DNA from: an uncultured Enterobacterales bacterium
GTDB lineage: Bacteria; Myxococcota_A; UBA796; JAFGLY01
Assembly (NCBI GenBank): GCA_964532635.1
Contig: CAZHIK010000005.1
Location: forward strand, 1-32,234
Length of the DNA stretch: 32,234 bases
Direction: 5' to 3'
Under the pieces are notes generated by a model. It had not been told where the DNA came from and made no database searches. It saw only the letters and a program-made list of their open reading frames with translations. Every line of letters begins with the position of its first letter. Position 1 is the first letter of the stretch. The translations under genes and the position numbers were made by a program. Below are positions 7,397-32,234 of this stretch, piece after piece.

Positions 7397-8705
7397 CGTT
7401 CCCTCCGAACAAGCTCAGCTGCGCCTCCAGCTCGTGGGACACCTCTACCCTCAGCTCGCGAAAGCGGGCCAGGGCTGGAAGAAGAGCGATGCCGCCGGGA
7501 ACCGTGCGCACGAGATCGAAGGACTCCAGCACCCCGATGGCGTCATCGAGAAAGACCATGGGATCTTCTCGGTGAGCCGCCTTGAGCGCAGGAGCGAGCG
7601 CCTCGCACAGCTCCTCGGCATGACGCTCCAGGCTCTGACGCTCCACCAGCAATGCTCGGGCTCCCACCCGCGGTGTCGCGCGGAATCCATCGGCATCGAG
7701 CGCGGCCGGCGCCGCTCCGTCCAGACTCACGGCGATGGCCTCGGCGCGCTCGGAGCCGTGGGGAGCGCGCAGCCGCGCGAGGCCTTCGACCTGTTCGCAG
7801 ATCCTCTCCGCGAGCAAGAGCGCTGCCTGCTGGTTCGCGCCTCCACGGGGGAACGCGATGTCCGAGAAGTGGCGTCCGGGATCCACCAGGGCCAGACCTT
7901 CCTTGCGCCGCTCCAAGGTCGCCCCGGTGAGCTCGTCGAGCTGCTCGGCCAGGCTCCCCGCCTCGCGATGCAGGAAGGCCAGATCCTCATCTGACAGCTC
8001 GTCGAAGTACATGACGGGCCGCTCGAGCAGGAGGCGCGCCAACCGCTGGCGACGGAGGCGCCGAGCCTCGTCCCGCCCGACCGCCGCGGGTTCCCGCACC
8101 AACAAGCCGGCCACACCACCGCAGCCCTGCAGTCCGCGCGGGAGCGGAAACAGCGCGCGACAGATCTCCCGATCGATGTCGTAGAGGGCCTCGGCCTCCT
8201 CGACCCCCTGCTCCCAGGCCTCGCGCGAGCCATCGGTCAGGCTCAACGCGCCATAGCGCTCGAGCTCCCGTACCGCGTGGCTCAACGCCAGCCGCGAAGC
8301 GTGGGCGTCGGTGTCGAAAGGCAGATCCGGGATCTGATCCACGGAGCGTCGAATGCGACGGGCGAGGTCCGTGAGCGTGGTCTGGCCACCCGACCGCTCC
8401 AGCGCCGCGAGCGTGAGCACGACCAGGGCGTAGCGCACCCGTTCGAAGGGGCGGCCACTCGGAGTGGAGAAGATGGGAACGACCTTCAGCTCGTCGGTCG
8501 CACGGACCAGACAGACTGCGCTGCGCCCACGCTCCACACGGTACCCAGCGAGCTCGAAGAAGGCTTGGTCGAGCGGCTCAGCGTACCGCCGCACGTTGCG
8601 CCACTGGGCCTCGCCGGGAACCCTGGCCGTGAGGATGCCCCTGACCAAGAGCGTCCTCGCGGCACGCTGGAAGTCACCCAGCTCCGTGTCCCGCACGCCT
8701 CTCAT
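7386..8705 (-). CDS. jetB: Wadjet JetB (TIGR02678 / DUF2398 family)
   Basis: Position between jetA and jetC. The ATG at 8705 (MRGVRDTELGDFQRAARTLLVRGIL...) overlaps the jetA stop (ATGA at 8702-8705). The track ORF's upstream extension to 8963 is out-of-frame overlap with jetA and is rejected. Confidence 0.8.
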   Translation of the reverse strand: MRGVRDTELGDFQRAARTLLVRGILTARVPGEAQWRNVRRYAEPLDQAFFELAGYRVERGRSAVCLVRATDELKVVPIFSTPSGRPFERVRYALVVLTLAALERSGGQTTLTDLARRIRRSVDQIPDLPFDTDAHASRLALSHAVRELERYGALSLTDGSREAWEQGVEEAEALYDIDREICRALFPLPRGLQGCGGVAGLLVREPAAVGRDEARRLRRQRLARLLLERPVMYFDELSDEDLAFLHREAGSLAEQLDELTGATLERRKEGLALVDPGRHFSDIAFPRGGANQQAALLLAERICEQVEGLARLRAPHGSERAEAIAVSLDGAAPAALDADGFRATPRVGARALLVERQSLERHAEELCEALAPALKAAHREDPMVFLDDAIGVLESFDLVRTVPGGIALLPALARFRELRVEVSHELEAQLSLFGGNGGS

Positions 8706-9439
8706 GGCGAAGCCTCCTGCCCCGCCTCGCTGGGCCTCGCGGTTCGGGGGGCTCCCGACTCGGTGACCTCGAGGTGATGCCCCTCGAGCAGCAGAGTGCC
8801 CCGCGTGGTTCGCACCAAGGTGTCCTGCTCCGCCGCTTCGATCCGCAGCCGCAGTCGGCCCCGGACCGTCTGGATGGTCGTCTGTGCAGGGCGGCGGGTG
8901 GTCAGAGCCCGGGAGAGCAGGCGCAGCAACACGCGCAACTCCCGCTCGTCGAGCGGTCGACACTGGGTCATCGAAGCCAACAGCGCGCGGCTCGCCTCAT
9001 CCTCTTTGCGGCGGCGGTCCTCCTGGCGGCGCCGAAGGAAGGTCTTCTCCTTGCGCCGATCCGGGACCGCCTTGGGTGTGCCGGGCGAAGCCGTGCGGCC
9101 GTAGTGGCGCAAGGTCGTGTCCACTGGTGCCGGCGGCGCACTCCACCAGCTCTCGCTGGGATCGATCTCGTCAGGCTCGAGGTCCGGCGTACCGAAGTGA
9201 CGCGCTCCCTGCAGGCCCGAGACCAGTCCCACGAGCGCATGGGCCTCGTCGTCTGTCGGACACGCCGCGATCCACCGCGCCAGATCCTCGAGCTGCGTGG
9301 CCCTGCTGACACCCCCAGCGGTCGCCTCCAGCACGCGCTTCAGCAGCACCGCCAAGTCCCGGATCGCCCTGTTGGTTCGTGCCTGGAGCAGGGTCGCTTG
9401 AGACGGCTGGTGAGGCTGATCGACGAACCAGGCCCGCAC
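8702..9439 (-). CDS. jetA: Wadjet JetA, C-terminal half (TIGR02677/DUF2397 family). Same reading frame as the N-terminal half and separated from it by one in-frame TAA.
   Basis: The frame is identical to ORF 9443..10198 (the offset of 759 nt is a multiple of 3). Only the codons TAA-GGG separate the two ORFs. The two pieces add up to about 498 aa, the usual full length of this family. Confidence 0.75.
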   Translation of the reverse strand: MRAWFVDQPHQPSQATLLQARTNRAIRDLAVLLKRVLEATAGGVSRATQLEDLARWIAACPTDDEAHALVGLVSGLQGARHFGTPDLEPDEIDPSESWWSAPPAPVDTTLRHYGRTASPGTPKAVPDRRKEKTFLRRRQEDRRRKEDEASRALLASMTQCRPLDERELRVLLRLLSRALTTRRPAQTTIQTVRGRLRLRIEAAEQDTLVRTTRGTLLLEGHHLEVTESGAPRTARPSEAGQEASP

Positions 9440-9442
9440 CCC

Positions 9443-10198
9443 TTACCAGTGGCGCTCGACCTGGGTCCGAGCCTTGTCGGGCCCCATCAAGGCCACCCTG
9501 CTGTCCGCCGCCAGACCGAGCAGAGAGTCTGCCTTCTCGTCCAGGGCCACGGTCGCGGCTGCCATGCGAGGCTGATGGGCCGTGAGCGCTGTCAGGAACC
9601 CATGCAGGTGGCCAATGAGCAGGTTCTTGTGGGCGAGAAAGGACTCCGGATCGGCCTCCCACGCCGCTGCCAGCTCGCTGGTGGCCAGGGTGAAGCGAGC
9701 GGCGTGCTCGGCCAGATTCTGAAGGGTGCCATGGATGGCCGCCAACAGATCCTCGACCCGCTCGCCGTCCTCGCTCTCGACGGCATCGGCGAGCCTGTCC
9801 AGATCGTCCTCGACCCGCGCGAGCACCAGCTTACGCAGCTCGGCCTCGCCAGGCTCGGCCTCGAGCACCTGGCCCACAGCTCGCCATGCCAGCCAGCCCA
9901 GCTCGGTCACCTGGTAGACCGACCGGCGCCGACGGTACTCGGCGATGGTGCGGACCCGGCGGTCATCCTGCAGCCGGTCGAGCAGCCCCCAGCCGTGGAG
10001 CTGATCGAGCCCGGCCAAGGCTTCGTCCTCGCTACCTGGGAGAGGATCGTCGCCGACGAGATCGGATGGAGCGAGCTGCAGTCGGCTGCGCTCACGCTCC
10101 TCGTCGAAGCGCGCCAGCATCGCCAGGTAGCGATGTCGGTGGTCGGCCTGCGTGTAGGCGAACAGGCGCAGCCTGGTGTCGTCCGTCGGGCGGGTCAT
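9443..10198 (-). CDS. jetA: Wadjet JetA, N-terminal half (TIGR02677/DUF2397 family), ended by an in-frame TAA at 9443-9445
   Basis: The N-terminus LRLFAYTQADHRHRYLAMLARFDEERERSRLQLAPSDLV fits the TIGR02677 N-terminal pattern. It is the first gene of the jetABCD operon. Confidence 0.8.
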   Translation of the reverse strand: MTRPTDDTRLRLFAYTQADHRHRYLAMLARFDEERERSRLQLAPSDLVGDDPLPGSEDEALAGLDQLHGWGLLDRLQDDRRVRTIAEYRRRRSVYQVTELGWLAWRAVGQVLEAEPGEAELRKLVLARVEDDLDRLADAVESEDGERVEDLLAAIHGTLQNLAEHAARFTLATSELAAAWEADPESFLAHKNLLIGHLHGFLTALTAHQPRMAAATVALDEKADSLLGLAADSRVALMGPDKARTQVERHW

Positions 10199-10312
10199 GG
10201 AGCATCAGGTAGCCCAGCGATGGGGGTGGCTCCATGTCGGGGAAGAACAACGAGGACAAGCAGCAAAGGGCCAGGAACACACCGGGCCTAACGGCAACTC
10301 CCGCCCGCACGG

Positions 10313-10349
10313 TTGAACATCCTGACAATACCGATTACTTTTTTGTCAG
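10313..10349 (+). promoter_or_regulatory. Putative promoter with overlapping operator for the AAA+/VWA cassette, in the divergent region shared with jetA
   Basis: TTGAAC (10313-10318), 17-nt spacer, TACTTT (10336-10341). The inverted repeat CTGACAA (10322-10328) / TTGTCAG (10343-10349) brackets the spacer and the -10 hexamer. AT-rich patch in a GC-rich genome. Confidence 0.35.
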
Positions 10350-10385
10350 CCCGTCCCACCTCACCGCTCTGCCAGGACCGCGACC

Positions 10386-11939
10386 ATGCTCGACCCCCTC
10401 GCCCTGCGGGGCGCGGCCACCGGTGCGCCCGACGCCAGCCGCGGCGCCGACGCCCAGGCACCTGCCCTCCACTTTCTCGCGCACATGGGCCTCCACGGCC
10501 TTGAGTCCCTGGAGCTGCCCCTCTCCATCCACGCCATCACCGGAGTCCCGTACTACCTCGTCGGTGATCGCGGTTCTGCAAAGTCCCGTGTCCTCGTCAG
10601 CTTCTACCGTTCCTTGAAGCTGAGCACTGGCGTCTACAACCTGGCCATGAGCACCCAGCTCGAGGATCTGGCGGGGTGGCCCAACGCCAAGGCCCTGGCC
10701 GAGGGCGAGTGGGCCTGGCAAGAGGCCCCCCATGTCATCTGGGGCAAGCAGGCCCTGGTCTTCGACGAGCTGCCGCGCGTTGTCCCCGGCCTGCAGGGCA
10801 AGCTTTTCGATGTCCTCCGGGACTTCTCGGTCATGGGCACGCCCATCGCGGGCCTGCAGCTCTGCTCCGCGACCGGGAATCCCCCCGGCCCCGGCTCGCA
10901 CCCGCTGGACGAGGCTTTGGTGGGCCGCTTCGGACTGCTGACCTTGATGCCGACCATCCAGGAGATGAGCCGCGTAGACCGCGAGCGCATCATCCGCTCC
11001 GTAGGCGAGAGCGACGCACCGCTGGCCAACGCCTTCCACAGCACGCCTCCCGACTACGACGAGGCCGGCGCCATCGCGCGAACCATCATCGACTCGGGAC
11101 GCGAGGAGCTGCCCGCGACCATCCGCGATCTGGGCCCCGCCGCCACCCGCTATGTCCTCGAGATCAGCGAGACCATCGAACAGGTCAGCCCCACCGGCTA
11201 CCTCGACGGCCGACGGCTCGGCATGGTGTGGCGCAACCTGATGACCGCCCTGGCCCTGGCTCGCCGCGGCTATCGCTGGCACGACGACGACTACCAGCTC
11301 GTCTTTCGGGTGCTCTGCCTCTCGCTGCCCTGGGTGGCGAGCGAACCGACTGTGGACTTCACGCGCCTGGCAGGCACCCACGCCGCGGCCTGGCGCGTGG
11401 CCTTCGGTGGCGCCCAGGCGCGCGACCTGGGGCTGCGCGTTCCCGACGCCGGAGAAGAGGATCTCGGCGCGCTGATCGACCGCTACGCCGAGCGCGCAGC
11501 AGACATGAGCGAGGACGAACACGGCTACCTGCTGGGCCAGGTCTTCGGACGTGCCGGGGCCGATGACACCGAACGACGCGTGGGAGCCATGGCCGAGGGA
11601 CTGCGCGTCGTGCGCTCGCTGCTGGGCCGCGAGGACGTACCCGCCGCAGTGGTGGCTCGGGCCCTGTCCTGGGCCGATCGGGTGGCAGGCATCGGTTCCC
11701 GCAGCGAGACCATGGCGATCGAGGAGCTGCTGTACACCCTGAACACCTACCAGCACGTCGTCGGCCCGCGAGATGCCCTGGCCCTGCGCCTGGCGTTGGA
11801 GGCGAGCCGCAAGGGCCATCCCGGCAGCGACACCCCCTTCGAGGCCCCGAAGGCACAGGCCGCGTTCACGCGGGCGGCCAAGGAAGCCTACCGGCTGCTC
11901 GAGACCGAGCAGCAGCACGCCCAGGATGAGGAGGAGTAG
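10386..11939 (+). CDS. RavA/MoxR-like AAA+ ATPase
   Basis: Walker A YLVGDRGSAKSRVL (compare the E. coli RavA GPPGIAKS variant). Walker B ALVFDELPRV. The downstream stretch GLQLCSATGNPPGPGSHPLDEALVGRFGLLTLM parallels RavA LLVAASNELPE..LEALYDRMLIRL. LDGRRLGMVWRNL parallels RavA SDRRWKK. The antisense 559-aa ORF is junk composition. Confidence 0.75.
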   Translation: MLDPLALRGAATGAPDASRGADAQAPALHFLAHMGLHGLESLELPLSIHAITGVPYYLVGDRGSAKSRVLVSFYRSLKLSTGVYNLAMSTQLEDLAGWPNAKALAEGEWAWQEAPHVIWGKQALVFDELPRVVPGLQGKLFDVLRDFSVMGTPIAGLQLCSATGNPPGPGSHPLDEALVGRFGLLTLMPTIQEMSRVDRERIIRSVGESDAPLANAFHSTPPDYDEAGAIARTIIDSGREELPATIRDLGPAATRYVLEISETIEQVSPTGYLDGRRLGMVWRNLMTALALARRGYRWHDDDYQLVFRVLCLSLPWVASEPTVDFTRLAGTHAAAWRVAFGGAQARDLGLRVPDAGEEDLGALIDRYAERAADMSEDEHGYLLGQVFGRAGADDTERRVGAMAEGLRVVRSLLGREDVPAAVVARALSWADRVAGIGSRSETMAIEELLYTLNTYQHVVGPRDALALRLALEASRKGHPGSDTPFEAPKAQAAFTRAAKEAYRLLETEQQHAQDEEE

Positions 11940-11941
11940 CC

Positions 11942-13021
11942 ATGGCCCGCATCCGAGGACTCGAAGTCCACGACGTATGGGAAGGTGTCCAGGTCTGGCG
12001 CCTGGGTGTCGCACAGATGCCGGTGGACGAGGCGCTGGAGAAGGATCTGATCTCCTTGGAAGGCTCGGTCGAGCTCAACCGTGGTCGCCGGTCGCCCTGG
12101 GGCCGTCGCGGGGTTCGCAGCCTGAAGCCAGCCACCCTCGACCTGGAGGGCTTCGGTCGCCTCAAGGGCCTGGTGGTCTCCAGGAGCGCGACCCGCTTGA
12201 CCCAGTACCTGCTACGGGCCGCCCGTCCCACCAAGGGCACGGTGCTGGCCACCTGGCTGCAGGGCCGCCCCTTCGACGAGGCCAGCATGGCCGAGCTGGG
12301 CGAGCTGCTGGAGCGGGCCTGGCTGATGGGCCAGGAGGTCGAGGGCATGCCTCTGGGCCGCAAGCTCCCCAATGGGGGCATGGCGCTGCTGCCGGAGGGC
12401 ACCGACATCCGGCTCGTGCGCGTCACCATCGGTGAACGCGACTGGTGGATGGACCGCATCCACCGCACCGGGGTGGTCTCGGCAGCCGTGGTGGATCGCT
12501 ACCTCACGCTCGGCCGGCACCGGGTTCCCCAGCCGCTGCACCTGCGCCGCAATCCGCCTGGCACCTGGTACGGCTGGTACGACGGATCGCAGGCGGGCTA
12601 CGCCCCATCGATCGAGGCCATCCCGGCGCGACTGCTCGACCGCGTGGAGGCCCAGGGCTGGATGCGAGCCACCACCGAGCCTCTGCGTCCCCTGGCCGAT
12701 CTCGACGTGCGCTTCCTGCTGCGGCGCCCGAGCCTCGACGATCGTCCTCGCAGGCCCGCAGCGGCGGTTCCAGCGGCCTGCACCAAGCCGGCCATCCTCA
12801 TCCCCACCACAGAGCCCGTGCCGCTGGTGGACCACGAAGGCCGCCCCCTGGACCTCCCGATGATCACCGAGCCCGCAGAAGCCCTCGCTGTGCTGGGTCG
12901 GGCGTACAACGGCCGCATCTTCGTGCCCCACGCGCACTGCCTCGATCCCTTCGACGTAAGCTGCCGCGCGGGTCGAGCCGAGTGGTTGATGGGAGTGCTT
13001 CCCCGCTGCCTGGCCGCCTGA
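11942..13021 (+). CDS. Hypothetical protein, middle gene of the AAA+/VWA cassette, no recognisable domain
   Basis: Its ATG lies 2 nt after the ATPase stop codon. Its TGA overlaps the ATG of the next gene (TGATG at 13019-13023). Amino-acid composition is normal (W/Y/D/E present). I recognise no motif. Confidence 0.65.
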   Translation: MARIRGLEVHDVWEGVQVWRLGVAQMPVDEALEKDLISLEGSVELNRGRRSPWGRRGVRSLKPATLDLEGFGRLKGLVVSRSATRLTQYLLRAARPTKGTVLATWLQGRPFDEASMAELGELLERAWLMGQEVEGMPLGRKLPNGGMALLPEGTDIRLVRVTIGERDWWMDRIHRTGVVSAAVVDRYLTLGRHRVPQPLHLRRNPPGTWYGWYDGSQAGYAPSIEAIPARLLDRVEAQGWMRATTEPLRPLADLDVRFLLRRPSLDDRPRRPAAAVPAACTKPAILIPTTEPVPLVDHEGRPLDLPMITEPAEALAVLGRAYNGRIFVPHAHCLDPFDVSCRAGRAEWLMGVLPRCLAA

Positions 13022-14448
13022 TGGACGTCCACCAACTCCTGGAGGCCGCCCTCTCGGCGCCCGTGGACGAGGATGCCCAGGGCCCCTTGGGGGTGGTGAT
13101 GGAGGTGCTGGCCCGCAGCGTCGTTCGGTCCGACCCAGATACCGCCACGCTGAGCATCACCCTCGGCAACCGACAGTGCATCCTACGCGTGAACGAGGAC
13201 TTCATCACCCGAGAGGTCCAGGACAGGATCGACGCACTGTTCGTCGCCGCGCACGAGACCCAGCATGTCATCTGCGACCACGGCAGCATCCCGCGCGTCC
13301 CCGGCGTCCCGGACGCGGTGATCAACGTCGGCATGGACCTCCAGGTCAACAGCAACATCCTGCGCGGGCTGATCGAACCGACGCCCGGCATCCTCGGACG
13401 CCTGTACCGCCACGATCGCTTCCCCGAGCTCCTGCTCCGCCCCCCGACGGACGTCATCGACCAGCTGGCGGCCGAGGATCCCGAGGCGAAGGTCTTCGCG
13501 GGTCGCACCTTGCGGCGGCTCGCAGCGGAGATCAACAGGTGCGGCATCACGCGCGCCCGGGTCGAGTCCGTCCTCCAAGCCCACTTCGCCCGCCTACCGG
13601 GCGTAGACCGCCCCGAGGCCTTCGTCCGTGCCTACCTGGACGGCTGGTGTCAGGCTCAGGAGGCTCGCTCCTGGCTGTTGCGCTTCATCCGCCTGCTGGG
13701 TCGCGACCAGCACCACGCGGGCTGGCGGCTCGTCCCCGTGATCGGCGACCACTCCCGGCGAGACCGCGCCAAGAGCAACCGCTGGTCTCGAGCGTGGGGC
13801 TGGAGCCGCAGCCGGCACCAGGACAACCTGGACCTGGACCCGGAGCCCGCCCCCGCGAAGCTGATGGAGCGCTTCCGCGCGGCAGCCCAGCGAGCGCTCC
13901 AGCCCTGGCTGGAGGACGGCGAGCCGCCACCGCCTGTCCAGGACCGAAACATCGTCCCGTCCCCCGGTCGTCGGGAGCAGATCCTGCGCGCCGCAGGCAT
14001 CACCCCCATCGTCTACGAGCATCGCCGCACACCGCCCATCGAGCCGAAGTTGATGGTCCACCTGTACCTGGACGTGTCGGGCTCCATGTCCGCCGAGCGC
14101 AACTGGTACGGCAGCCTGGTCCGCGTGCTCGGAGAGCAGCTGGCTGAACCCGTGTGGGTCTGGAGCACCCAGGTCCGCGAGGCAAGCCGAGCCGACGTGA
14201 TGAACGGCACGATGCCCACCGATGGCGGCACTCGCATCGAGCCTGTGGTCGAGCACGCTATCGCCAAGGGCTTTCGTCGTGTTCTGGTGCTCAGCGACGG
14301 GGAGTTCGGATTCGAGACCGGTCTGCTCTCCGATCGCGTGAGGGAGGCCGGGCTGGAGGTGGTGTTCCTTCTACTCCGCGGACGCGGGAGCAGGGTGCAG
14401 TGCAGCCGCTTGGAGGGATTTGCGGTGGAGGTGATGGAGTTCGATTGA
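13021..14448 (+). CDS. Putative metallopeptidase-domain / VWA-domain protein (DUF2201_N plus VWA-like, ViaA-analogous partner of the ATPase)
   Basis: HExxH in FVAAHETQHVICDHGS, followed by INVGMDLQVNSNIL (the DUF2201_N pattern HE..H....H ... N.a.D..vN). The C-terminal VWA MIDAS motif is VHLYLDVSGSMS, with a later VLVLSDGEF. The real start is the ATG at 13021; the track ORF start at 12445 is an off-frame extension over the preceding gene. Confidence 0.75.
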   Translation: MDVHQLLEAALSAPVDEDAQGPLGVVMEVLARSVVRSDPDTATLSITLGNRQCILRVNEDFITREVQDRIDALFVAAHETQHVICDHGSIPRVPGVPDAVINVGMDLQVNSNILRGLIEPTPGILGRLYRHDRFPELLLRPPTDVIDQLAAEDPEAKVFAGRTLRRLAAEINRCGITRARVESVLQAHFARLPGVDRPEAFVRAYLDGWCQAQEARSWLLRFIRLLGRDQHHAGWRLVPVIGDHSRRDRAKSNRWSRAWGWSRSRHQDNLDLDPEPAPAKLMERFRAAAQRALQPWLEDGEPPPPVQDRNIVPSPGRREQILRAAGITPIVYEHRRTPPIEPKLMVHLYLDVSGSMSAERNWYGSLVRVLGEQLAEPVWVWSTQVREASRADVMNGTMPTDGGTRIEPVVEHAIAKGFRRVLVLSDGEFGFETGLLSDRVREAGLEVVFLLLRGRGSRVQCSRLEGFAVEVMEFD

Positions 14449-14507: not shown

Positions 14508-15347
14508 TCAGTCGTCCAGTCCCCAGCCGTCGAAGAGCTTCTTCTTCGCAGGAGGCTCTGTCGGAGGCTCACCCTCGGTAGGGGCGGCTGGCTGGGGCGG
14601 CATCGCGGCGGCCTTCACCAACTTGGCGCCCATTCGCACGAGACCCTTAATCTCCTCCTCTTGCGCCTGCTGATCCGCGGGCGGGGGCGCGGTGGGCGGC
14701 GGAAAGTCGATGCTCCTGGCGACCTCGAGGGCCGACGCGGCCGCTCCCACGACGCCAGGCTGGTACATCATCATCGCCACCATGGTTTCTTCCTTGTGCC
14801 GCATCTCCTGCGCGCGAATCCGGGCCAACTCCACCTGTTCGCGGGAGCCGAGCGGCCTGGGCCGCGGGATGCCCACTGCCACGGTCACCCTGCCCTGCGT
14901 GAGCAGCTTCTGTTGAAGCGCAGCTTCGGCGTGGATGATGATGGAGCCCTGATGGGGTCGCGGGAGCCTGGACAAGCGATCGCGCGCCAGCCGCTCGAAG
15001 CTGCTGCAGCCCAGATCGGCGCGGTTGGGGTCCACGGTCCAGTGCTCGTTCGCCGCGATGCTCCCGGAGCCGTCGATGGCATGAAGCCGGTAGGAGATGG
15101 GAGAGAGGCGCGCTGGCCAGCCCTGTGGCGGCTGCGCCGCGAGGACGAGCTGAACGGCCAGCTCGTCGCCCTGTTCTGGGGGACCGCCGGCCCAGCCGTG
15201 CAGCCTGGCCAGCCCCGCGAGCGCTTCGTGATGGAGCGGCACGAGATCCCGGGCGAGCTCCTCCCGCACATCGAGCCACCGATCCCCCCGGTACTGGCGC
15301 AGGGGAGATGGGAAGGTGGGAGATCCGGATGAGTAGGAAGGCGGCAT
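14508..15347 (-). CDS. Hypothetical protein with a Pro-rich C-terminal tail ending KKKLFDGWGLDD
   Basis: It is the only frame here with protein-like composition; the overlapping 392-aa (+) and 245-aa (-) ORFs are Arg/Gly junk. It is divergent from the regulator gene across an AT-rich 76-bp spacer. No domain recognised. Confidence 0.55.
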   Translation of the reverse strand: MPPSYSSGSPTFPSPLRQYRGDRWLDVREELARDLVPLHHEALAGLARLHGWAGGPPEQGDELAVQLVLAAQPPQGWPARLSPISYRLHAIDGSGSIAANEHWTVDPNRADLGCSSFERLARDRLSRLPRPHQGSIIIHAEAALQQKLLTQGRVTVAVGIPRPRPLGSREQVELARIRAQEMRHKEETMVAMMMYQPGVVGAAASALEVARSIDFPPPTAPPPADQQAQEEEIKGLVRMGAKLVKAAAMPPQPAAPTEGEPPTEPPAKKKLFDGWGLDD

Positions 15348-15423
15348 GTTTTCGAAGAAACGGTCTAATTCGCTGTCTTAGCATAATATCTCATGTAAGC
15401 TGTCGATTGTCACCGAGGATCTC

Positions 15424-16761
15424 ATGGCAGCCATCGATCCCTTTCAGGTCATCTTGGGACTTCGAAGGCAGGAACAGCCTGGCATCGCTGTGCTCGCCGT
15501 ACCTGGCATGGGACTGACCGACTCTACCCTGCTCACCGCGAAGCTACTGGAGCGCGGTCCTCCCGCCATCGGGTTCATGGGCCTCGACCCAGGCCGTCAC
15601 TGGTACCCCTTCACACTGGATCCTGGCCTGGCGCCCACTGTCCAGGCCTGCGAGATCGAGCTGGACGGAGCCATGCTGCGGGTCGTGCCCAGCGCCAACC
15701 CACGGGACCCATGGGTCGCGCTGGTCCTGGAGTCAGCCGAGCCCGATGGATGCGAGGGCGAGATCGTCGACTACGACCAAACGCAGGGGCTCGCGGACGC
15801 GAGTCGCCTGGCCCTGGAAGGCACTGGCATCCAGCATCTGCACACAGGCCTGCTGCGCCGAGCCGGGCTGGAGGGCGCGCCGGCCCTTCGGGCGGCAGGG
15901 GTGGTGGGCGACCAGGGCGAGCTGACCCTCGGCGCCCTGCTCTGCCTCGTGCGAGGCACCTTCCCCGCCGTGCCTCCCTGTTGGACCATCGTGGTCGAGC
16001 GGTACCACGCGGACCCGCGGACCGTCGTCAGACACGACCTCGAACCTGTCGAGAGAAGGACACTGGAACCGCCGCTGCCCATCGCCATCGACGCCATCGT
16101 GGACGACCTGTCGGTGGAGCAGCCCTTCCTCCATCGGGACAGTAGCTACGCCGCCCACGCTCTCCGGGAGATCCTGGTCAACGCGGTCACGCACCGTCAC
16201 TACCCAGGCAAGGAGGACGAGCCGGTCAAGGTGTCCTGTCACCCCGACCGCATCGTCGTCACCAGCCCCGGCGCATGGGCGGGCCCCGAGGACGAGCAGG
16301 CTGACCCCACGTCCGATCCATCGGCCCGCATCCCCAACCCTGGCCTGCACGCCCTCATGGCCCGCCTTGGCCTGTGCCGACAGCAGGGCATGGGCCTGGA
16401 GAGAGCCAGGCTTCACGCGCGGGCCATCGGGATGCGATTGGAGATCGAGCGACGGGGTCTTGCCGTGCGCGCCAGCTTGATCGTCGATCGCCAGCTGAGC
16501 CTGGAGCTGGACACGCCTGGCGCGGAGCGTCAGAGCAAGACGAGAGGATCGGCAGCCGCGGTCAGAGAGGAGCGCCTGGTGGAGTACCTGCGCAGACGGG
16601 AGTCGGCGTCGAAGAAGGAGATCGCCGAAGCCTTGGGGATTCCGGAACCAACGGTCGCGGTCACGCTCAAGGAGTTGAGGGACAAGGGCCGGGTGATGAC
16701 GACCGAGCGGGCAGCGCGCTCACCGCGGCAGCGGTACCGGGTGGTGAAGGACCGGGCCTAA
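15424..16761 (+). CDS. Putative transcriptional regulator: HATPase_c_4-like domain ('RecG C-terminal-like', as found in AlbA_2/Schlafen-type regulators) plus a C-terminal winged HTH
   Basis: ALREILVNAVTHRHYPGKEDEPVKVSCHPDRIVVTSPG ... IPNPGLHALMARLGLCRQQGMGLERA fits the HATPase_c_4 pattern. The C-terminus ERLVEYLRRRESASKKEIAEALGIPEPTVAVTLKELRDKGRV is a MarR/wHTH-like motif. The N-terminal ~230 aa are unassigned. Confidence 0.6.
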   Translation: MAAIDPFQVILGLRRQEQPGIAVLAVPGMGLTDSTLLTAKLLERGPPAIGFMGLDPGRHWYPFTLDPGLAPTVQACEIELDGAMLRVVPSANPRDPWVALVLESAEPDGCEGEIVDYDQTQGLADASRLALEGTGIQHLHTGLLRRAGLEGAPALRAAGVVGDQGELTLGALLCLVRGTFPAVPPCWTIVVERYHADPRTVVRHDLEPVERRTLEPPLPIAIDAIVDDLSVEQPFLHRDSSYAAHALREILVNAVTHRHYPGKEDEPVKVSCHPDRIVVTSPGAWAGPEDEQADPTSDPSARIPNPGLHALMARLGLCRQQGMGLERARLHARAIGMRLEIERRGLAVRASLIVDRQLSLELDTPGAERQSKTRGSAAAVREERLVEYLRRRESASKKEIAEALGIPEPTVAVTLKELRDKGRVMTTERAARSPRQRYRVVKDRA

Positions 16762-16819
16762 ACCGTCGTGGATGCGCGTCCTGTTCAGCGGGAGGCGCTG
16801 ATCGACAGGGCGATCGTTC

Positions 16820-17860
16820 TCAAGAGCTGTTCTTGCGGTACCCGATCGGCCGCTCGTCATCCCTCCACCCCCCTCGCCCACGCCGCCGGACCGCAGGATC
16901 GAGCGCAGCCTTGTCCACGAGGCCGAGAACACAGAGCGTCGGAGAGAGGACCCAGCGGCCCTGTCCGTCCTGCAGGATGGACGCCGAGCCGCGCATGCCG
17001 AGCATCGCCCCAAGCCGCTTGTTGAGTCGGCTCCTGGCCTTGTCCCAGGCAGCAGTACCCGCGTCCGGGCCTACGACGAGCCGCCGAAGCTCATCGGAGG
17101 GCATGGGTCGCTCGTTCAACAAGCGCGTGAGGAGGCGAAGCCCCTGGGGGTGGCTGGGCTCGGGCTCACCACCCGCGAGGCTCATCCAGGCGGTCCCTTG
17201 TGCGGGTAGGGCGAAGTAGAGCTGCTCCGTGCCCGCCATACTCGCCTGGTACGCTTCGAACTCGGCCACGGCCAGCGAGCGCGGCAGCATAGGTGTCCGG
17301 AGACCGACTGCAGGACCCACGAGCATCCAGCGGAACTCCTCGGCCGCAGGCGCGGATGATGTCCGCCGCCGATCCCGTTCCACCTCGATGCCGATGCCGT
17401 GGCACAGCCCGTAGAACTCCAGCATCGTCTCGGCTCGCCCACCCGCGGTGGCCCCCAGCAGCCCCCACTCTCCGTGGGATCGAGCTCGGGGCTCAGCTCG
17501 GAGGAGCTGCTGAACGCGCTGCATCCCGTCCACCAAGGCCTCGCGAGACGTACCCAACCGCGACATCGCCGCCAGCCGATAGAGCGCCGGCCACGGACCC
17601 AGCATCTCAGAGCTCGCAGCCTGGTCGAGCAGCCCCAGAACCCGCTCGAGCTGTGCGGGGTCGAGGTCACGCCGCAGCTCGACGAGCGCGAGCCGGTACG
17701 CCGCCAGCGCCGACCAGGGGCCTGGCAGCGGCTCGGGCTCCAAGGACTTCCGCAGGGCGCGCTCGAGAAGCCGACCAGCCTCCAGGGTCATCCCCACCTC
17801 GAGCTTGGCGGCAGAACCCACCAACAGCAGATGGATGACCTCGTCTCTCCTCGTTCGCAT
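16820..17860 (-). CDS. Hypothetical protein: helical N-terminus and a possible OmpR/trans_reg_C-like wHTH at the C-terminus
   Basis: ATG at 17860. The C-terminal segment GLRLLTRLLNERPMPSDELRRLVVG...AAWDKARSRLNKRLG...ILQDGQGRWVL resembles an OmpR-type winged helix. This is a weak call made by eye. Confidence 0.5.
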   Translation of the reverse strand: MRTRRDEVIHLLLVGSAAKLEVGMTLEAGRLLERALRKSLEPEPLPGPWSALAAYRLALVELRRDLDPAQLERVLGLLDQAASSEMLGPWPALYRLAAMSRLGTSREALVDGMQRVQQLLRAEPRARSHGEWGLLGATAGGRAETMLEFYGLCHGIGIEVERDRRRTSSAPAAEEFRWMLVGPAVGLRTPMLPRSLAVAEFEAYQASMAGTEQLYFALPAQGTAWMSLAGGEPEPSHPQGLRLLTRLLNERPMPSDELRRLVVGPDAGTAAWDKARSRLNKRLGAMLGMRGSASILQDGQGRWVLSPTLCVLGLVDKAALDPAVRRRGRGGWRDDERPIGYRKNSS

Positions 17861-17931
17861 GACGTTCCTCGCCCTGGAGAGGCCCTCCTATCGCGAGAGA
17901 GCCCGCGAGCGTGCTTGCTGAGCCTGACGGT

Positions 17932-17949
17932 TGACAATAGATATTGTCA
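17932..17949. promoter_or_regulatory. Operator-like palindrome TGACAATA-GA-TATTGTCA, overlapping a consensus -35 hexamer TTGACA (17931-17936), upstream of xis/int
   Basis: Perfect 8-bp arms with a 2-bp spacer, read directly from the sequence. It lies in the 100-bp divergent spacer between the 346-aa gene and the excisionase-like gene. Confidence 0.45.
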
Positions 17950-17961
17950 GGACGAATCTCG

Positions 17962-18615
17962 ATGGCCCTTCACTTCACCGATCCCGACGCCCTCACCCGC
18001 AGCCTGGCGGCCGGTCTGTCCTTCAGCCGCGCGGCCTGCGGCAGGGTGCCAATCCCCGACGAGCTGACCATCAGCGTCGACAAGGTCACCTGCGGAGCTT
18101 GCCTCCTGGCGTTGCGCGGTGGGGGCCGTTCGAGCCCGGGATCGATGACGGTGGCGCCGAACAACGACGGTGTCCCACCCCCCGCGGCACCCGCTCCCTG
18201 GCTCAACCTCAAGGACGCCGCGGACCACCTGGGCATGGGCCCCGGGAAGCTCCGCACCCTCATCCGCGACGGTGTCCTCGACGGCGCCGCCTACAAGGAA
18301 GGCCGCTTCTGGCGCATCCACATCGAGCGCGCCGAGGCCGCCCTGCTCCGCACCGACGGAGGTCACCATGGCCTGGCTGGTCAAGAAGAGGCGCAAGAAC
18401 CGCGAGACCGGGCGCAAGGAGATCTACTACAGCCTGGCCTGGCGCGACGATCACGGCTGCACCCAGACCCGCAGCCTGGGCTTCGTGGGGGCCAGGGAGG
18501 CCAAGCGCCTGAAGACCGTGCTCGAGGGGGAGCACGCCCGCGGCCGGCTCGTGGAGCCGCCGCCTTCCGTGCGCTCCTCGACGCCAGCGCAGGAGCCGGC
18601 GAGCCCGAGGCGTGA
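17962..18615 (+). CDS. xis: Excisionase-family (HTH_17/MerR-like) DNA-binding protein; both ends uncertain, 3' part overlaps int
   Basis: PWLNLKDAADHLGMGPGKLRTLIRDGVLDGAAYKEGRFWRIHIERAEAALL is a typical excisionase HTH. In-frame ATGs lie at 17962 and 18145 (the track start at 17944 is TTG). There is no stop until 18615, so the ORF overlaps the integrase ATG (18368) by 248 nt; that tail may not be translated. Confidence 0.55.
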   Translation: MALHFTDPDALTRSLAAGLSFSRAACGRVPIPDELTISVDKVTCGACLLALRGGGRSSPGSMTVAPNNDGVPPPAAPAPWLNLKDAADHLGMGPGKLRTLIRDGVLDGAAYKEGRFWRIHIERAEAALLRTDGGHHGLAGQEEAQEPRDRAQGDLLQPGLARRSRLHPDPQPGLRGGQGGQAPEDRARGGARPRPARGAAAFRALLDASAGAGEPEA

Positions 18616-19639
18616 GCCCGCCACCCTGGAGCACCTGCTCCAGCAGATCTACCTCCCCATCGTCGAGCGGGACAAGGCGCCCAAGACCCACGCCGCCGCC
18701 AAGACAGCCGCGAAGAACCTCGAGGCGCGCATGGGCTCGCTGCGCCTGGACGAGATCCGTTTCATGGTCGTGGACGGCTACGTGACCGCGCGCAAGCAGG
18801 ACGGCCGCAAGACCCGCACCATCCAGCTCGAGCTGCGGCTGCTCAAGGCCGCCTTGAAGCACGCGGTGCGCTGCGAGCTGCTGGACGAGCTGCCGGACCT
18901 GCCCAGCGTGAAGGACACGGATCGCAAGGACATGAAGGCCCTGATCCGACAGCTCACGCCCGAGAAGGTGGAGGAGCTGCTCAGCGAGCTACACCCTCCC
19001 GACCAGCAGCCCCACCGGGTCACGCGCGGCAGGCCGCCGGCCCGCCGGGACCATCTGACCTACCTGGTGGTGCTCATGGCGCTGAACACCGGGATGCGGC
19101 GCAGCGAGCTGCTCACCCGCACCTGGGAAGACGTGGACTGGTACGACGGCGGCCTGGGCTCCATCCTGGTCTGCCCCCGCCCCGAGGTGGGCTTCCAGCC
19201 CAAGACCCGCCGCGACCGCCGCATCCCCCTCACCCCGGAGCTACGCCAGGAGCTGGCCGAGCTCCACCTGCGCCTCGGCCGGCCCGCCCAGGGGTGGATC
19301 TTCCCGTCCCCGCGCGACGCCAGCCAGCCGCGCAAGAGCTTCTCCAAGGCCCTGGCCCGCGCCAGCCAGGCCATCGGCCTGCCGCGCCTGCATCCCCACG
19401 CCCTCCGCCATGCCTGGGCCTCCCGCATGGCCATGGCCGGCGTGGACCGCTGGACCCTGATGGAGCTGGGCGGCTGGCAGAGCGGCGAGATGCTCGACGA
19501 GATCTACACCCACGTCACCAGCGCCCACATGCACGAGGCGATGCGGGGGACGGGGGTGGGCAGGGGGCGGCCGGAGGAGCCGGAGGCTGAGGACGGGGAC
19601 GAGGGCGAGGTCCACCAGCTGGCGCCAACGGCCTCCTGA
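18368..19639 (+). CDS. int: Site-specific tyrosine recombinase (phage-type integrase)
   Basis: ATG at 18368 (MAWLVKKRRKNRETG...). The catalytic region reads LMALNTGMRRSELLTRTWEDVDW ... HPHALRHAWASRMAMAGVDRWTLMELGGWQSGEMLDEIYTHV (R...HxxR...Y). The track ORF's upstream extension from 18170 is off-frame overlap with xis. Confidence 0.9.
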   Translation: MAWLVKKRRKNRETGRKEIYYSLAWRDDHGCTQTRSLGFVGAREAKRLKTVLEGEHARGRLVEPPPSVRSSTPAQEPASPRREPATLEHLLQQIYLPIVERDKAPKTHAAAKTAAKNLEARMGSLRLDEIRFMVVDGYVTARKQDGRKTRTIQLELRLLKAALKHAVRCELLDELPDLPSVKDTDRKDMKALIRQLTPEKVEELLSELHPPDQQPHRVTRGRPPARRDHLTYLVVLMALNTGMRRSELLTRTWEDVDWYDGGLGSILVCPRPEVGFQPKTRRDRRIPLTPELRQELAELHLRLGRPAQGWIFPSPRDASQPRKSFSKALARASQAIGLPRLHPHALRHAWASRMAMAGVDRWTLMELGGWQSGEMLDEIYTHVTSAHMHEAMRGTGVGRGRPEEPEAEDGDEGEVHQLAPTAS

Positions 19640-19658
19640 TCACGCTTGCCCTGTTCCA

Positions 19659-19758
19659 GATCTACACTCCCATCACCAGCGCCCACGTGCACGACGCGAT
19701 GCGCGGGACGGATGTGGGGAGGGGGCGGCAGGAGAAGCCGGAGGTGTACTCCGGCTAG
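19659..19758 (+). pseudogene. Remnant of the 3' end of a second, related integrase gene
   Basis: 19659-19750 aligns without gaps to int 19501-19592 at roughly 85% identity by my hand count. It translates as IYTPITSAHVHDAMRGTDVGRGRQEKPEVYSG*, compared with int IYTHVTSAHMHEAMRGTGVGRGRPEEPEAEDG. Similarity begins abruptly at the IYT codons. Confidence 0.65.
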
Positions 19759-19777
19759 TTTCCGAGCCCTCGTTCTC

Positions 19778-20653
19778 CTACGAACAGCCCACGGCCAACT
19801 CGCAGCGGCTCGGGTACACATACAGCGCAGCTCGGTACGGGCTCGGCCCCCACCCAAGCCGACCGACGGTGCCACTGGTGGCTTCCGCCCACAAGCCCAC
19901 TTCGTGGAACTCCACCCACGCATGGCCCTCGCCATTGTAGGTCCCGATCGCGAGCCGACCAGGGGGCAAGCCCACCCAGCGAGCGGCCGACCAAAGGACG
20001 AGACTCATGTCCTCGCAGTCACCAGTGCCGTCCCACAGCGTCCAGAGAGGCGATTGCCAGAAGTCGGGGCAACCCCACTTCCGATGGTCGGACTGGTAGG
20101 CGATCCGCCTCACGACCCACGTGGCGAGGCTCTCGAGCCGAAGGATCTGCGGAATGTGCGGTGCTGGCACGAGACTCGGGCGCAGGAACGGAAGCACCTG
20201 ATCGGGTCGGTACAGAGCTTTGCCAAGCCGACACCACTGCTGGACCATCTGGTTCATGACTCGCTGCTGGTCGAGGATCGCCAAGCCGGCCTGGACCGCT
20301 GCACTGGGCGAAGCTCCCGCTGCGATCTGGCTGGCAACCAGCGTGGAGAGCTGGCTGGCTTTGGGCCACTGCCCGCGGCCGACCAAATGGAAGATGTGCC
20401 GGAAGGCAGCATCGAGCACCTCGGGTTCAACGCCGCGAGGATGCGCTCGAAGGCTCCTCATGTAGAGCTGCTTCCACACCGATCCGGTCCGCCTGGACCG
20501 GGCGTTCATCCGGGCCAGGACGACCCGTGTCCCCCGCCGCAAGGCGGGTGCCATAGGACTTCCCCGCTGACGGAGGGTCAAGGCTGCGCGCAGGACTTGG
20601 TCAGAGGGAGGGATCGTCATCGGGTCCTCCAAGGGATTCCAAGGCAGCTGCAA
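19778..20653 (-). CDS. Transglutaminase-like cysteine peptidase (BTLCP / LapG-like, Peptidase_C93-like); no signal peptide seen
   Basis: DFWQSPLWTLWDGTGDCEDMSLVLWSAARWVGLPPGRLAIGTYNGEGHAWVEF matches the LapG/BTLCP hallmark (W..P.etl..G.GDCED[FY]..... then a catalytic His in 'H.W/V'). The start is uncertain: 20653, or the ATG at 20620 (MTIPPSD). Either way it overlaps the end of the upstream HTH gene. Confidence 0.6.
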   Translation of the reverse strand: MQLPWNPLEDPMTIPPSDQVLRAALTLRQRGSPMAPALRRGTRVVLARMNARSRRTGSVWKQLYMRSLRAHPRGVEPEVLDAAFRHIFHLVGRGQWPKASQLSTLVASQIAAGASPSAAVQAGLAILDQQRVMNQMVQQWCRLGKALYRPDQVLPFLRPSLVPAPHIPQILRLESLATWVVRRIAYQSDHRKWGCPDFWQSPLWTLWDGTGDCEDMSLVLWSAARWVGLPPGRLAIGTYNGEGHAWVEFHEVGLWAEATSGTVGRLGWGPSPYRAALYVYPSRCELAVGCS

Positions 20654-20876
20654 CCCGCGCGCGCCCCGTTCGTTTCACCATCAGCTCCGCGATGCGCTCT
20701 CGATTCCGTCGATGCGGCCGGCGCACGATGCCTTCGACCCACCGATAGACCGTCGCGTCATCAACCTCAGCATCCGCTGCGAGCGCAGCCTGGCTGCCCT
20801 CGTAGACATGCTTGAGCAGCCAGCTCACCTGGCTGTGGAATCCGTCGAACTTGGATGCCGTCTCGGTCATGTTCAC
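20601..20876 (-). CDS. Small HTH DNA-binding protein (Cro/CI/XRE-like)
   Basis: 91 aa. GSQAALAADAEVDDATVYRWVEG is an HTH-like segment. It is co-directional with, and overlaps, the protease gene. Confidence 0.55.
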   Translation of the reverse strand: MNMTETASKFDGFHSQVSWLLKHVYEGSQAALAADAEVDDATVYRWVEGIVRRPHRRNRERIAELMVKRTGRARVAAALESLGGPDDDPSL

Positions 20877-21160: not shown

Positions 21161-21237
21161 TGGTCGGGGTGGGCGGATTCGAACCGCCGACTTCCTGCTC
21201 CCAAAGCAGGCGCGCTACCAGACTGCGCTACACCCCG
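21161..21237 (-). tRNA. tRNA-Pro (anticodon TGG), CCA encoded
   Basis: The reverse complement folds as a cloverleaf. Acceptor stem CGGGGTG/CACCCCG. D stem GCGC/GCGC. Anticodon stem CCTGC/GCAGG with loop TTTGGGA. T stem GGCGG/CCGCC with loop TTCGAAT. Discriminator A followed by CCA. Total 77 nt. Confidence 0.92.
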
Positions 21238-21300: not shown

Positions 21301-21475
21301 CGCGTGCGCAACTGGCCACCCTTGGCGTGAGGGTGCCGGGTTGCGCACGGTGATCGCGGCGAAAGCGTGCGCAAGTAGTCACCCTGGGCCCAAGGGTGCC
21401 GGGTTGCGCACGGTTCTCGCCAGGAAGGCGTGCGCAAGTGCACACCCTTGGTGTGATGGTACCGAGTTGCGCACG
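21301..21475. repeat. Three tandem ~63-nt repeat units, each a long imperfect hairpin (CGTGCGCAA ... CACCCT-loop-AGGGTG ... TTGCGCACG)
   Basis: The 5' arms CGTGCGCAA are at 21303, 21366 and 21429. The 3' arms TTGCGCACG are at 21341, 21404 and 21467, giving an exact 63-nt period. The inner stem CACCCT/AGGGTG is intact in units 1-2 and degenerate in unit 3. The repeats lie between the metallophosphoesterase stop and the tRNA-Pro 5' end. Confidence 0.85.
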
Positions 21476-21496
21476 GCCTGGACCCCGCCCCGCTCG

Positions 21497-31066: not shown

Positions 31067-32234
31067 TCAGCGCCTGCGGCGCGAGGCCAGCAGCAGGGGC
31101 AGCAGCAGCCACGCCAGGCCCACGGCACCGCCCCCGCCGCAGGCGCAGCCACCGCCGCCCTTGAAGAAGCCGTCGTCGTCGGAGAACGGCCCGGTGTCGG
31201 TCCCCGGCCCGGTGTCGTCGCTGCCGGGTTCGCTGTCATCGGGCCCCGTGTCGCCCGTGTCCTCGACGATGGGCTCGCAGTCGTCGTCCAGCTCACCGTT
31301 GCCGGGCCAGCTGTCGGGATCGGTGTCGTCGCAGTCCTCGTCCAGAGGCCAACCGTCGCCGTCCTGGTCGTAGTCGTCGGCGCCGTCGCAGTCCTGGTCG
31401 ACCCCGTCGTACCAGGTCTCCATGGCGTCGGGGCTGACGCTGGCGTCGGTGTCGTCGCAGTCGGCGCCGCCATAGGCGTCGGAGCCGAAGCCGTCGCCAT
31501 CCTGGTCGTAGTCGTCGGCACCGTCGCAGTCGCTATCCACACCGTCGTACCAGATCTCCTCGGCCTCCGGGTTCACCGCGGGATCGGTGTCGTCGCAGTC
31601 CTCGTCCACACCGTAGCCGTCGCCGTCCTGGTCCGTGTCGTTGCCGTCGCAGTCCTGGTCCAGGCCGTCGTACCAGATCTCCTCGGCGTCGGGATTGACC
31701 GCCGAGTTGGCATCGTCGCAGTCGTCGCCTCCGTAGGCCGAGCTGTCCCAGCCGTCGCCGTCGGCGTCGTACTCGCCGGCCTCGTCGCAGTCGTTGACCA
31801 CGCCGTCGTAGGGGATGTCCGGCGCGCCCGGGTAGGTGGTGGCGTCGGCGTCGTCGCAGTCGGTGCCGCCGTAGCTGGCGCTGTCGTAGCCGTCGCCGTC
31901 GTAGTCGTAGTCGTTGGCGCCGTCGCAGTCGCTGTCCACGCCGTCGTACCAGGTCTCGATGGCGTCGGGATTCACGCTGGCGTCGTCGTCATCGCAGTCG
32001 TCGCCCCCGTAGGCGTCGCTGTCGTGCTCGTCGTAGTCGGCGTCGTAGTCGGACCAGCCGTCGCAGTCCTGGTCGAAGCCGTCGTACCAGACCTCGCTGG
32101 CCCCGGGGTTGACCGCGGCGTCCGCGTCGTCGCAGTCGGCGCCGCCGTAGCCGTCGGCCGCGTAGCCGTCACCGTCCGCGTCGTAGTCGTTGGCGCCGTC
32201 GCAGTCGCTGTCCACGCCGTCGTACCAGGTCTCG
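31067..32234 (-). CDS. Second MopE-repeat surface protein with MYXO-CTERM-like tail; partial, N-terminus lies beyond the window
   Basis: Repeats of DCDD.D..VNP.A.E.WYDG.D.DCDG.DDYD.DGDG. The frame stays open to the window edge (..ETWYDGVDSDCDG). The C-terminus is FFKGGGGCACGGGGAVGLAWLLLPLLLASRRRR. Confidence 0.8.
   Translation of the reverse strand, partial: ETWYDGVDSDCDGANDYDADGDGYAADGYGGADCDDADAAVNPGASEVWYDGFDQDCDGWSDYDADYDEHDSDAYGGDDCDDDDASVNPDAIETWYDGVDSDCDGANDYDYDGDGYDSASYGGTDCDDADATTYPGAPDIPYDGVVNDCDEAGEYDADGDGWDSSAYGGDDCDDANSAVNPDAEEIWYDGLDQDCDGNDTDQDGDGYGVDEDCDDTDPAVNPEAEEIWYDGVDSDCDGADDYDQDGDGFGSDAYGGADCDDTDASVSPDAMETWYDGVDQDCDGADDYDQDGDGWPLDEDCDDTDPDSWPGNGELDDDCEPIVEDTGDTGPDDSEPGSDDTGPGTDTGPFSDDDGFFKGGGGCACGGGGAVGLAWLLLPLLLASRRRR

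Follow-up and report, generated by a model that had tools for sequence, protein, structure and literature searches.

The subject of this analysis is a three-gene cassette, referred to below as the triad, that lies in contig CAZHIK010000005.1 of an uncultured bacterium (GenBank assembly GCA_964532635.1); the whole stretch analysed, positions 1 to 32,234 of that contig, is called the window. The genes g1, g2 and g3 specify, respectively, an ATPase of the MoxR class, a protein of no recognizable family, and what is probably a metallopeptidase joined to a VWA domain. They recur together, in the same order, in genomes of very different base composition, and their surroundings vary in the way that is familiar from mobile elements and defence islands; they are never found in conserved housekeeping loci. 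The triad is evidently a derived form of a widespread two-gene unit, a MoxR ATPase paired with a metallopeptidase-VWA protein (DUF2201-like), and it is a plausible candidate for a role in genetic conflict.

All three genes are on the forward strand: g1 at 10386-11939 (517 amino acids, an AAA+ ATPase of the MoxR/midasin class), g2 at 11942-13021 (359 amino acids, a beta-rich soluble protein without family or fold match) and g3 at 13021-14448 (475 amino acids, a zincin-like N-domain and a C-terminal VWA domain). An earlier, sequence-only reading of the window described them as co-directional and translationally coupled, and was correct in each particular: the TAG of g1 (11937-11939) is separated by two nucleotides (cc, 11940-11941) from the ATG of g2 at 11942, which has a GGAGG-rich stretch directly on its 5' side, and the stop codon of g2 (TGA, 13019-13021) runs into the start codon of g3 (ATG, 13021-13023) in an ATGA overlap, so that 13019-13023 reads TGATG. 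In the frames of g1 and g2 the G+C content at third codon positions (GC3) lies at 0.85-0.86. Pairwise ratios of nonsynonymous to synonymous substitution (dN/dS), determined against four homologous loci, are 0.18-0.49 for g1, g2 and g3; these values signify purifying selection, and the three are therefore functional coding genes. The entire cassette takes up 4 kb and its proteins are soluble.

The ATPase motifs of g1 are a Walker A sequence, GDRGSAKS, at residues 60-67 (G60-x2-G63-x2-K66-S) and a Walker B sequence, LVFDELP, at residues 124-130 (D127-E128). In 10 sequences extending down to 30% identity, G60, G63, K66 and E128 are invariant, D127 is nearly so, and N165, R181 and R276/R277 are also invariant. 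The window protein scores below the Pfam threshold for AAA_5 (17.3 bits; threshold 22 bits), while PF07728 is flagged in several of its close homologues and a relative at the locus designated L008 (32% identity) exceeds the thresholds for AAA_5 (41.4 bits), AAA_3 (35.7 bits) and bpMoxR (33.9 bits). Searching the PDB with the family profile finds midasin (5.7e-13), MoxR 2r44 (1.4e-6) and RavA (1.6e-5), in each case through the AAA core only. Because the profile matches cover the AAA core, and because the Walker and polar residues are invariant, g1 is assigned to the MoxR class (the AAA_5, or helix-2-insert, clade) and is probably active. The sequence-only reading placed g1 in the right class; its further specification as RavA-type was too narrow, and identification with RavA proper is rejected: alignment with RavA is limited to residues 44-225 of the AAA core, is weaker than alignment with midasin or MoxR, and brings in no RavA-specific (LARA) region. 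Triad-type g1 proteins do have a distinctive feature of their own, a C-terminal helical tail that is approximately 60-100 amino acids longer than in two-gene relatives (414-468 residues follow Walker A, against 343-365 in g1-g3 pairs). This added tail may be a docking region for g2.

The third gene product carries the two other motifs quoted in the sequence-only reading (all four are in place), HETQH at residues 78-82 and DVSGSM at residues 351-356. The former belongs to a helical N-terminal domain in which H78-E79-x2-H82-x4-H87 (H or D at the last position) and N102/D106/N110 are invariant: the corresponding patterns, HExxH(x4)[H/D] and NxxxDxxxN, are present in 27 of the 27 relatives that align over this region. 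The latter opens a complete metal ion-dependent adhesion site (MIDAS: D351-x-S353-x-S355, T404 and D426), whose elements (DxSxS, GGT, TDG) are kept in all 33 aligned relatives, barring a few substitutions in the threonine motif. It is because these residues are conserved across the aligned relatives that g3 is read as a zincin-like peptidase to which a VWA domain with a functional-looking MIDAS is joined. An AlphaFold model accords with this division in showing a helical N-domain, a disordered linker of approximately 95 amino acids (245-340) and a C-terminal Rossmann-like domain, for which Foldseek finds many VWA domains, including that of NorD in NorQD complexes. In Pfam, g3 matches only VWA_CoxE, at 22.1 bits (below the 26.4-bit threshold), with no match to DUF2201_N or DUF2201 at E <= 1, and nothing ViaA-like was found for it. 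The combination of HExxH and VWA/MIDAS proposed in the sequence-only reading is therefore real, and the DUF2201_N resemblance that went with it is only a distant one: the g3 relative at L008 (27% identity) reaches E 0.011 with DUF2201 and E 0.047 with DUF2201_N, both below threshold. Homology to proteins of the DUF2201 type (PF13203 plus PF09967) receives indirect support through the phage family phrog_1314, which g3 matches at 2.8e-12 across its N- and C-terminal parts.

The middle protein, g2, has no match in Pfam (E <= 1), NCBIfam, PHROGs or PADLOC (PADLOC-DB v2.0, matches reported to E <= 1), and none in the PDB by sequence or profile search. Its AlphaFold model, built on a 52-sequence alignment (predicted local distance difference test, pLDDT, 90.9; predicted template modelling score, pTM, 0.85), is beta-rich with few helices, and Foldseek finds no match for it at E <= 1e-3 in the PDB or BFVD. 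The sequence-only reading could place no motif in g2, and it does indeed belong to no characterized family; "orphan" was nevertheless the wrong word, since an exhaustive profile search collects approximately 55 representatives (clusters at 50% identity) among 1.84 billion proteins, all of them 340-390 amino acids long. Relatives with at least 58% identity form 12 clusters among 5.8 billion proteins. What the broad family conserves is confined to a [WYF]-[DE]-G beta-turn (D214-G215), FLLRxP, L318/R320 and YVP; it has no conserved catalytic-looking residue set. Wherever flanking sequence suffices for a judgment, g2 sits between homologues of g1 and g3, and no relative occurs in the viral contigs, phage records or plasmids searched. 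Two further ideas about g2 were rejected: that it is a beta-propeller (there is no fold match and there are no repeats), and that it binds nucleic acid by virtue of its charge (the isoelectric point spans 5.2-10.6 within the family).

Triads with the same gene order and tight or overlapping junctions are found in approximately 24 distinct loci with G+C contents of 0.23-0.72; this recurrence of order and coupling makes the arrangement more than chance, and the three genes are kept together as a unit. With g1 as the seed, a scan of metagenomes yielded 41 loci, whose arrangements, assigned by mapping with hidden Markov models, fall into four sorts: triads in approximately 13 further lineages (G+C again 0.23-0.72); g1-X-g3, in which the middle gene is different or very divergent (L025/L026, where it specifies 305 amino acids and hhalign gives a 5% probability of a relationship to g2); plain g1-g3 pairs; and reversed g3-g1 pairs, one of them in a 103-kb viral contig. 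It is the existence of these arrangements side by side that argues for derivation of the triad from the pair. The close clade of the triad is rare, being represented by one metagenome-assembled genome among 185,579 species-representative genomes. The triad is also absent from the viral contigs, phage records and plasmids searched, in which the viral relative is the two-gene g3-g1 unit, and searching phage and plasmid records by tblastn with g2, g3 and the g3 relative of L008 gave no match.

The two-gene core is not new. A MoxR gene paired with a metallopeptidase-VWA gene has been noted in group 2.2 jumbo phages, with a proposed role in virion assembly or processing (Iyer et al. 2021, PMC7824862), and shares with the triad a MoxR ATPase beside a protein that has an HExxH N-domain and a C-terminal VWA/MIDAS domain. 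The DUF2201-type architecture is likewise shared by g3 (N-terminal HExxH, C-terminal VWA, and a MoxR gene adjacent or one gene away), although the g3 of the window lies below detection by the DUF2201-type Pfam models. The two-gene relatives of g1 and g3 are adjacent in either order; by comparison, the triad has g2 inserted between the genes and the longer C-terminal tail on g1. Bacteria and phages commonly carry the pair, to which no function has been assigned, and a search of the literature on DUF2201, COG3864, PF13203 or MoxR in an anti-phage setting found no functional study. Ternary MoxR-vWA systems, too, are an existing concept. What appears to be new is the triad with its middle protein, which lacks detectable relatives of known structure and has no PADLOC model. 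The sequence-only reading's "undescribed" is accordingly apt for the third component of the cassette and goes too far for its two-gene core.

Ternary MoxR-vWA modules have been framed as conflict systems, and the classes recognized by Kaur et al. in 2020 and 2021 are VMAP, iSTAND, FtsH, beta-propeller, iSTAND2 and TERNS3 (PMC7159879, PMC8195603). The likeness to the triad is in the overall design: a MoxR-vWA core, a third protein peculiar to the system, and loci that are mobile and patchy in distribution. The g1 relative at L008 is above the bpMoxR threshold, as in systems of this type, and the P-loops of the window clade (GDRGSAKS) and of L008 (GGPGCAKT) are similar, but not identical, to the variant GxxxTAKS of the FtsH and beta-propeller classes (PMC7159879). 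The differences are equally evident. In the systems of Kaur et al. effectors lie on the C-terminal side of the vWA domain (PMC8195603), whereas in g3 the peptidase is N-terminal to it and nothing follows it. The third components VMAP, iSTAND/iSTAND2, double FtsH ATPase and TPR/beta-propeller find no counterpart in g2 (for TERNS3 the comparison is by description only). Beta-propeller, TPR, effector-associated adaptor (EAD) and Death-like domains are all absent from the triad.

Characterized MoxR/VWA pairs furnish a second comparison. In midasin, RavA-ViaA, NorQ-NorD and CbbQ-CbbO, the MIDAS grips an acidic residue of the client while the AAA+ ring remodels that client. With these, and with CoxD-CoxE, the triad has in common an AAA+ ring of the same clade and a MIDAS-bearing VWA partner, and by analogy it is likely to share the same working principle. 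It differs from them in having no nearby client enzyme, and in the addition of a zincin domain and of a third protein; compared with RavA-ViaA specifically, it is without LARA architecture and without a ViaA-type partner.

The genes around the triads do not point to a common partner. Near 12 distant triads, 95 neighbours represent 89 different Pfam families, and the sole recurrent domain is WYL (7 of the 95). Across the approximately 24 loci there is no recurrent enzyme or housekeeping partner; the sequence-only reading had set housekeeping loci, such as those of chelatases or NorQ/NorD-like activation systems, against its own proposal, and none was encountered. In four low-GC loci (L020, L024, L029, L031) a stand-alone WYL protein of 97 amino acids lies directly 5' of the triad, with a conserved 519-amino-acid protein without known family 5' of it and, in the three loci with contigs long enough (L020, L029, L031), a 431-amino-acid AAA_5-like ATPase further upstream, so that a larger system of five or six genes is suggested for the low-GC lineage. 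No integrase accompanies the distant triads, whose contexts are unrelated; also near them are transposases, a resolvase and several matches to PADLOC candidate systems. After the L008 triad come a helicase, with a match at 1.2e-66 to the reverse transcriptase (RT)-associated NERD helicase model, and AddAB-like nucleases. At L009 (10712-19093) and L010 it adjoins genes for a 1985-amino-acid DEAD/Helicase_C/MZB protein and a 1598-amino-acid N6_Mtase/Eco57I-type methyltransferase, a giant gene pair that looks DISARM-like or type ISP-like. A protein of 598-599 amino acids with faint Metallophos and RNase_H_2 matches is encoded directly 5' of g1 at L006 (6602-8398), L009 (3161-4960) and L062 (2300-4099), and at L006 only, a DNA polymerase A gene is upstream of the triad. 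(Genome GCA_016844905.1 accounts for two of these three loci, as paralogous triads.)

The immediate setting in the window is that of an integrative element. A backbone that travels with the triad occupies 14508-19639 (it is given here as context, not as a demonstrated part of the system). It begins at 14508 with a reverse-strand gene for a protein of 279 amino acids that is conserved 3' of the triad, continues with a conserved gene for a 445-amino-acid HATPase_c_4 and winged-helix protein (15424-16761, forward), likely an element regulator, and with a reverse-strand gene for a 346-amino-acid protein without family match (16820-17860), and ends with a tyrosine integrase gene (18170-19639, forward). 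The 445-amino-acid protein also matches a phage family, phrog_12156, that is labelled "DNA helicase". Close relatives of the triad (58-85% identity) belong to the same element family (L001, L002, L058-60; in part L004 and L011/12), with the order triad, 279-amino-acid protein, HATPase_c_4-winged-helix protein, protein of approximately 346 amino acids, tyrosine integrase. The 346-amino-acid protein accompanies triad and integrase at 53-73% identity in L001, L004, L011/12 and L058-60, and could represent either a core gene of the element or a fourth partner; at L011/12 its gene is directly 5' of g1, on the opposite strand. The flank away from the backbone varies from locus to locus, and may consist of an SNF2-type helicase and a 1724-amino-acid protein, of a sigma-54 activator, or of a pair of dynamin-like GTPases.

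What might such a cassette do? We propose that the triad would act as one cytoplasmic machine carried on mobile elements and made up of a ring, an adaptor and a protease. The ring, of the MoxR AAA+ type, would be formed by g1; g3 would dock on it through its VWA domain in the manner of NorD on NorQ, ViaA on RavA and CbbO on CbbQ; and g2 would be an adaptor or sensor without enzymatic activity, gripped by the MIDAS of g3, whose candidate ligand is the acidic residue that the whole family keeps in an exposed beta-turn (D214-G215). A second hold on g2 may come from the extended C terminus of triad-type g1. Hydrolysis of ATP would remodel this complex and in so doing gate the zincin-type peptidase of g3, the sole effector-like activity of the triad, which would be released or else aimed at a target. 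The purpose would be to defend the host, or the element, from phages or competing elements by regulated proteolysis, along the lines of the "thresholding" attributed to MoxR-vWA ternary systems.

A role in genetic conflict is favoured by contexts that are variable and mobile, by the WYL regulators and by the precedent that MoxR-vWA ternary systems provide, and we regard it as the most likely of the roles considered, with a probability that falls a little short of even. The fully specified version, an ATP-gated proteolytic immune module in which g2 (as a new fold) senses an invader, the MIDAS hands g2 to the ring, and the zincin cleaves a host or invader target with abortive infection or exclusion as the outcome, can be offered only tentatively, and is on balance doubtful. 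A number of observations weigh against the conflict role. None of the three proteins matches a PADLOC model at E <= 1. The two-gene pair from which the triad descends is present in phage genomes. The g2 protein is not hypervariable, unlike many sensors of conflict systems. The g3 model is of low confidence (pLDDT 65) and its N-domain is without structural match: Foldseek returns VWA matches only, and the PDB profile search nothing. The identities of the triad in the window clade track those of the integrase and of the 346-amino-acid protein; this co-divergence implies that, within that clade, the triad behaves as element backbone rather than swappable defence cargo. Defence is plausible rather than proven because of this co-divergence with the integrase backbone, and because the adjacency to a defence operon in the window (the Wadjet genes, below) is not found elsewhere. 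The sequence-only reading's "conflict system" thus draws support from variable contexts of a mobile and defence-like kind, and loses some of it to the backbone-like behaviour in the window clade and the want of a PADLOC match.

The main alternative is that the triad serves the mobile element itself: as a chaperone-protease it would mature, assemble or remodel element proteins that take part in replication, excision, transfer or the assembly of particles, and g2 would be a client or adaptor specific to the element. Such a role, possible although unlikely taken by itself, would make sense of the fixed position of the window-clade triad beside the 279-amino-acid, HATPase-winged-helix, 346-amino-acid and integrase genes, with identities that track, and of its location 3' of the 599-amino-acid Metallophos/RNase_H_2 gene at L006, L009 and L062, with DNA polymerase A also upstream at L006. 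It is consistent with the two-gene form in the 103-kb viral contig, with matches to the phage families phrog_1314 and phrog_1297, with the absence of PADLOC matches, and with the virion assembly or processing proposed for the jumbo-phage pair (PMC7824862). It is harder to reconcile with the lack of capsid, tail, conjugation or other assembly genes near any triad, with the failure to find g2 in any viral contig, phage record or plasmid searched, and with the occurrence of distant triads in unrelated contexts without integrases. A different kind of service to the element, counter-defence or competition between elements, with an ATP-driven peptidase degrading host immune proteins or those of rival elements, is improbable: proteolysis is the only effector-like activity on offer, and the triad is backbone-like in an integrative element and stands beside varied host defence genes, but no specific evidence speaks for it, searches turned up no resemblance to any known anti-defence protein, and the neighbouring regulators of the WYL type are a more usual feature of defence operons. 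Least probable of all is a housekeeping function, in which a MoxR-VWA chaperone would insert a metal cofactor or activate an enzyme in the manner of CoxD/CoxE, NorQ/NorD, CbbQ/CbbO and RavA/ViaA. The VWA domain of g3 is CoxE-like, below threshold, and NorD-like in structure, and all characterized MoxR-VWA pairs work, to our knowledge, as maturation or activation chaperones; yet no client-enzyme gene is conserved near the triad, neighbours differ at nearly every locus, the distribution is rare and patchy (the close clade in 1 of the 185,579 genomes), the setting is one of integrase-bearing islands, and g3 has an extra, invariant peptidase site.

MoxR-vWA modules have been widely predicted to be conflict systems, and we know of none that has been validated by experiment. 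The triad, with every catalytic motif intact, is a good, compact candidate for such a test, and the residues at which mutation is predicted to matter are readily listed: K66 and E128 in g1, D214 in g2, and E79 and D351/S353 in g3. Should the triad be an immune module, it would bring the classes of MoxR-vWA ternary system to seven, and would be the first of them with a route to testing in a tractable host. If it confers immunity or exclusion, it would provide the first mechanistic handle on the entire MoxR-vWA class, g2 would add a new structural family, and one would see how a chaperone pair can be turned into a regulated protease. If, on the other hand, the triad serves its element, a new core function would have been found for a family of myxobacterial integrative elements.

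On its other side the triad is divergent from a reverse-strand Wadjet operon, made up of jetA (DUF2397), jetB (DUF2398), jetC (SbcC_Walker_B) and jetD (DUF3323 plus DUF2399), with the jetA start at 10198, 187 bp from g1. The sequence-only reading was right about this spacing and made too much of the adjacency: there are no jet genes near any other triad locus, and jetA (8702-10198) is split by a single TAA at 9443-9445 into two in-frame open reading frames (ORFs) that correspond to profile positions 1-240 (N part) and 255-482 (C part). Either the TAA was introduced in error by sequencing or it is a nonsense mutation, and Wadjet is then inactivated. Because it is unique to the window and because jetA carries the in-frame stop, the adjacency is considered incidental and given no weight; a functional link between triad and Wadjet is rejected. 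The divergent spacer (10199-10385, 187 bp) is a candidate operator/promoter region. In its sole AT-rich stretch (within about 10311-10360), approximately 40 nucleotides 5' of the g1 ATG, is an imperfect palindrome, TGACAA-N14-TTGTCA (at about 10320-10350), a possible shared operator of the divergent jetA and g1 operons. A scan of the spacer for the sigma-70 consensus gave no match, promoter, terminator and Rfam scans of the region were equally negative, and the spacer has no DNA similarity to other triad loci. Further out, as the sequence-only reading had it, an HNH_2 gene (1296-2213) is approximately 8 kb away.

The same reading linked the island to a tRNA-Pro gene, and this is confirmed by the placement of the integrase gene and of tRNA-Pro(TGG) at 21161-21237 (reverse strand), the likely integration target, beyond which housekeeping genes (metallophosphoesterase, rpe, fmt) begin. 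The 3' end of tRNA-Pro is not repeated within the window as an attachment (att) site would be; the left end of the island is outside it. The 3' end of the integrase gene (19500-19586) is duplicated 158 nucleotides downstream at 19658-19744 with 87% identity, which may have been left behind by a second integration or have arisen as a duplication related to att; the copy falls in the start of a 389-amino-acid ORF (19646-20815) that has no homologue in related loci. Two large proteins of Cu-binding_MopE repeats, with 9 and 6 copies, are encoded at 24540-27176 and 31067-32215 (reverse strand) and, taken with a G+C content of approximately 0.69, suggest that the genome is myxobacterial. Another feature of the window is a set of three tandem 63-nucleotide repeats, 71-79% identical, at 21302-21490 between tRNA-Pro and the metallophosphoesterase gene, each of which holds the inverted repeat GCGTGCGCAA...TTGCGCACGG.

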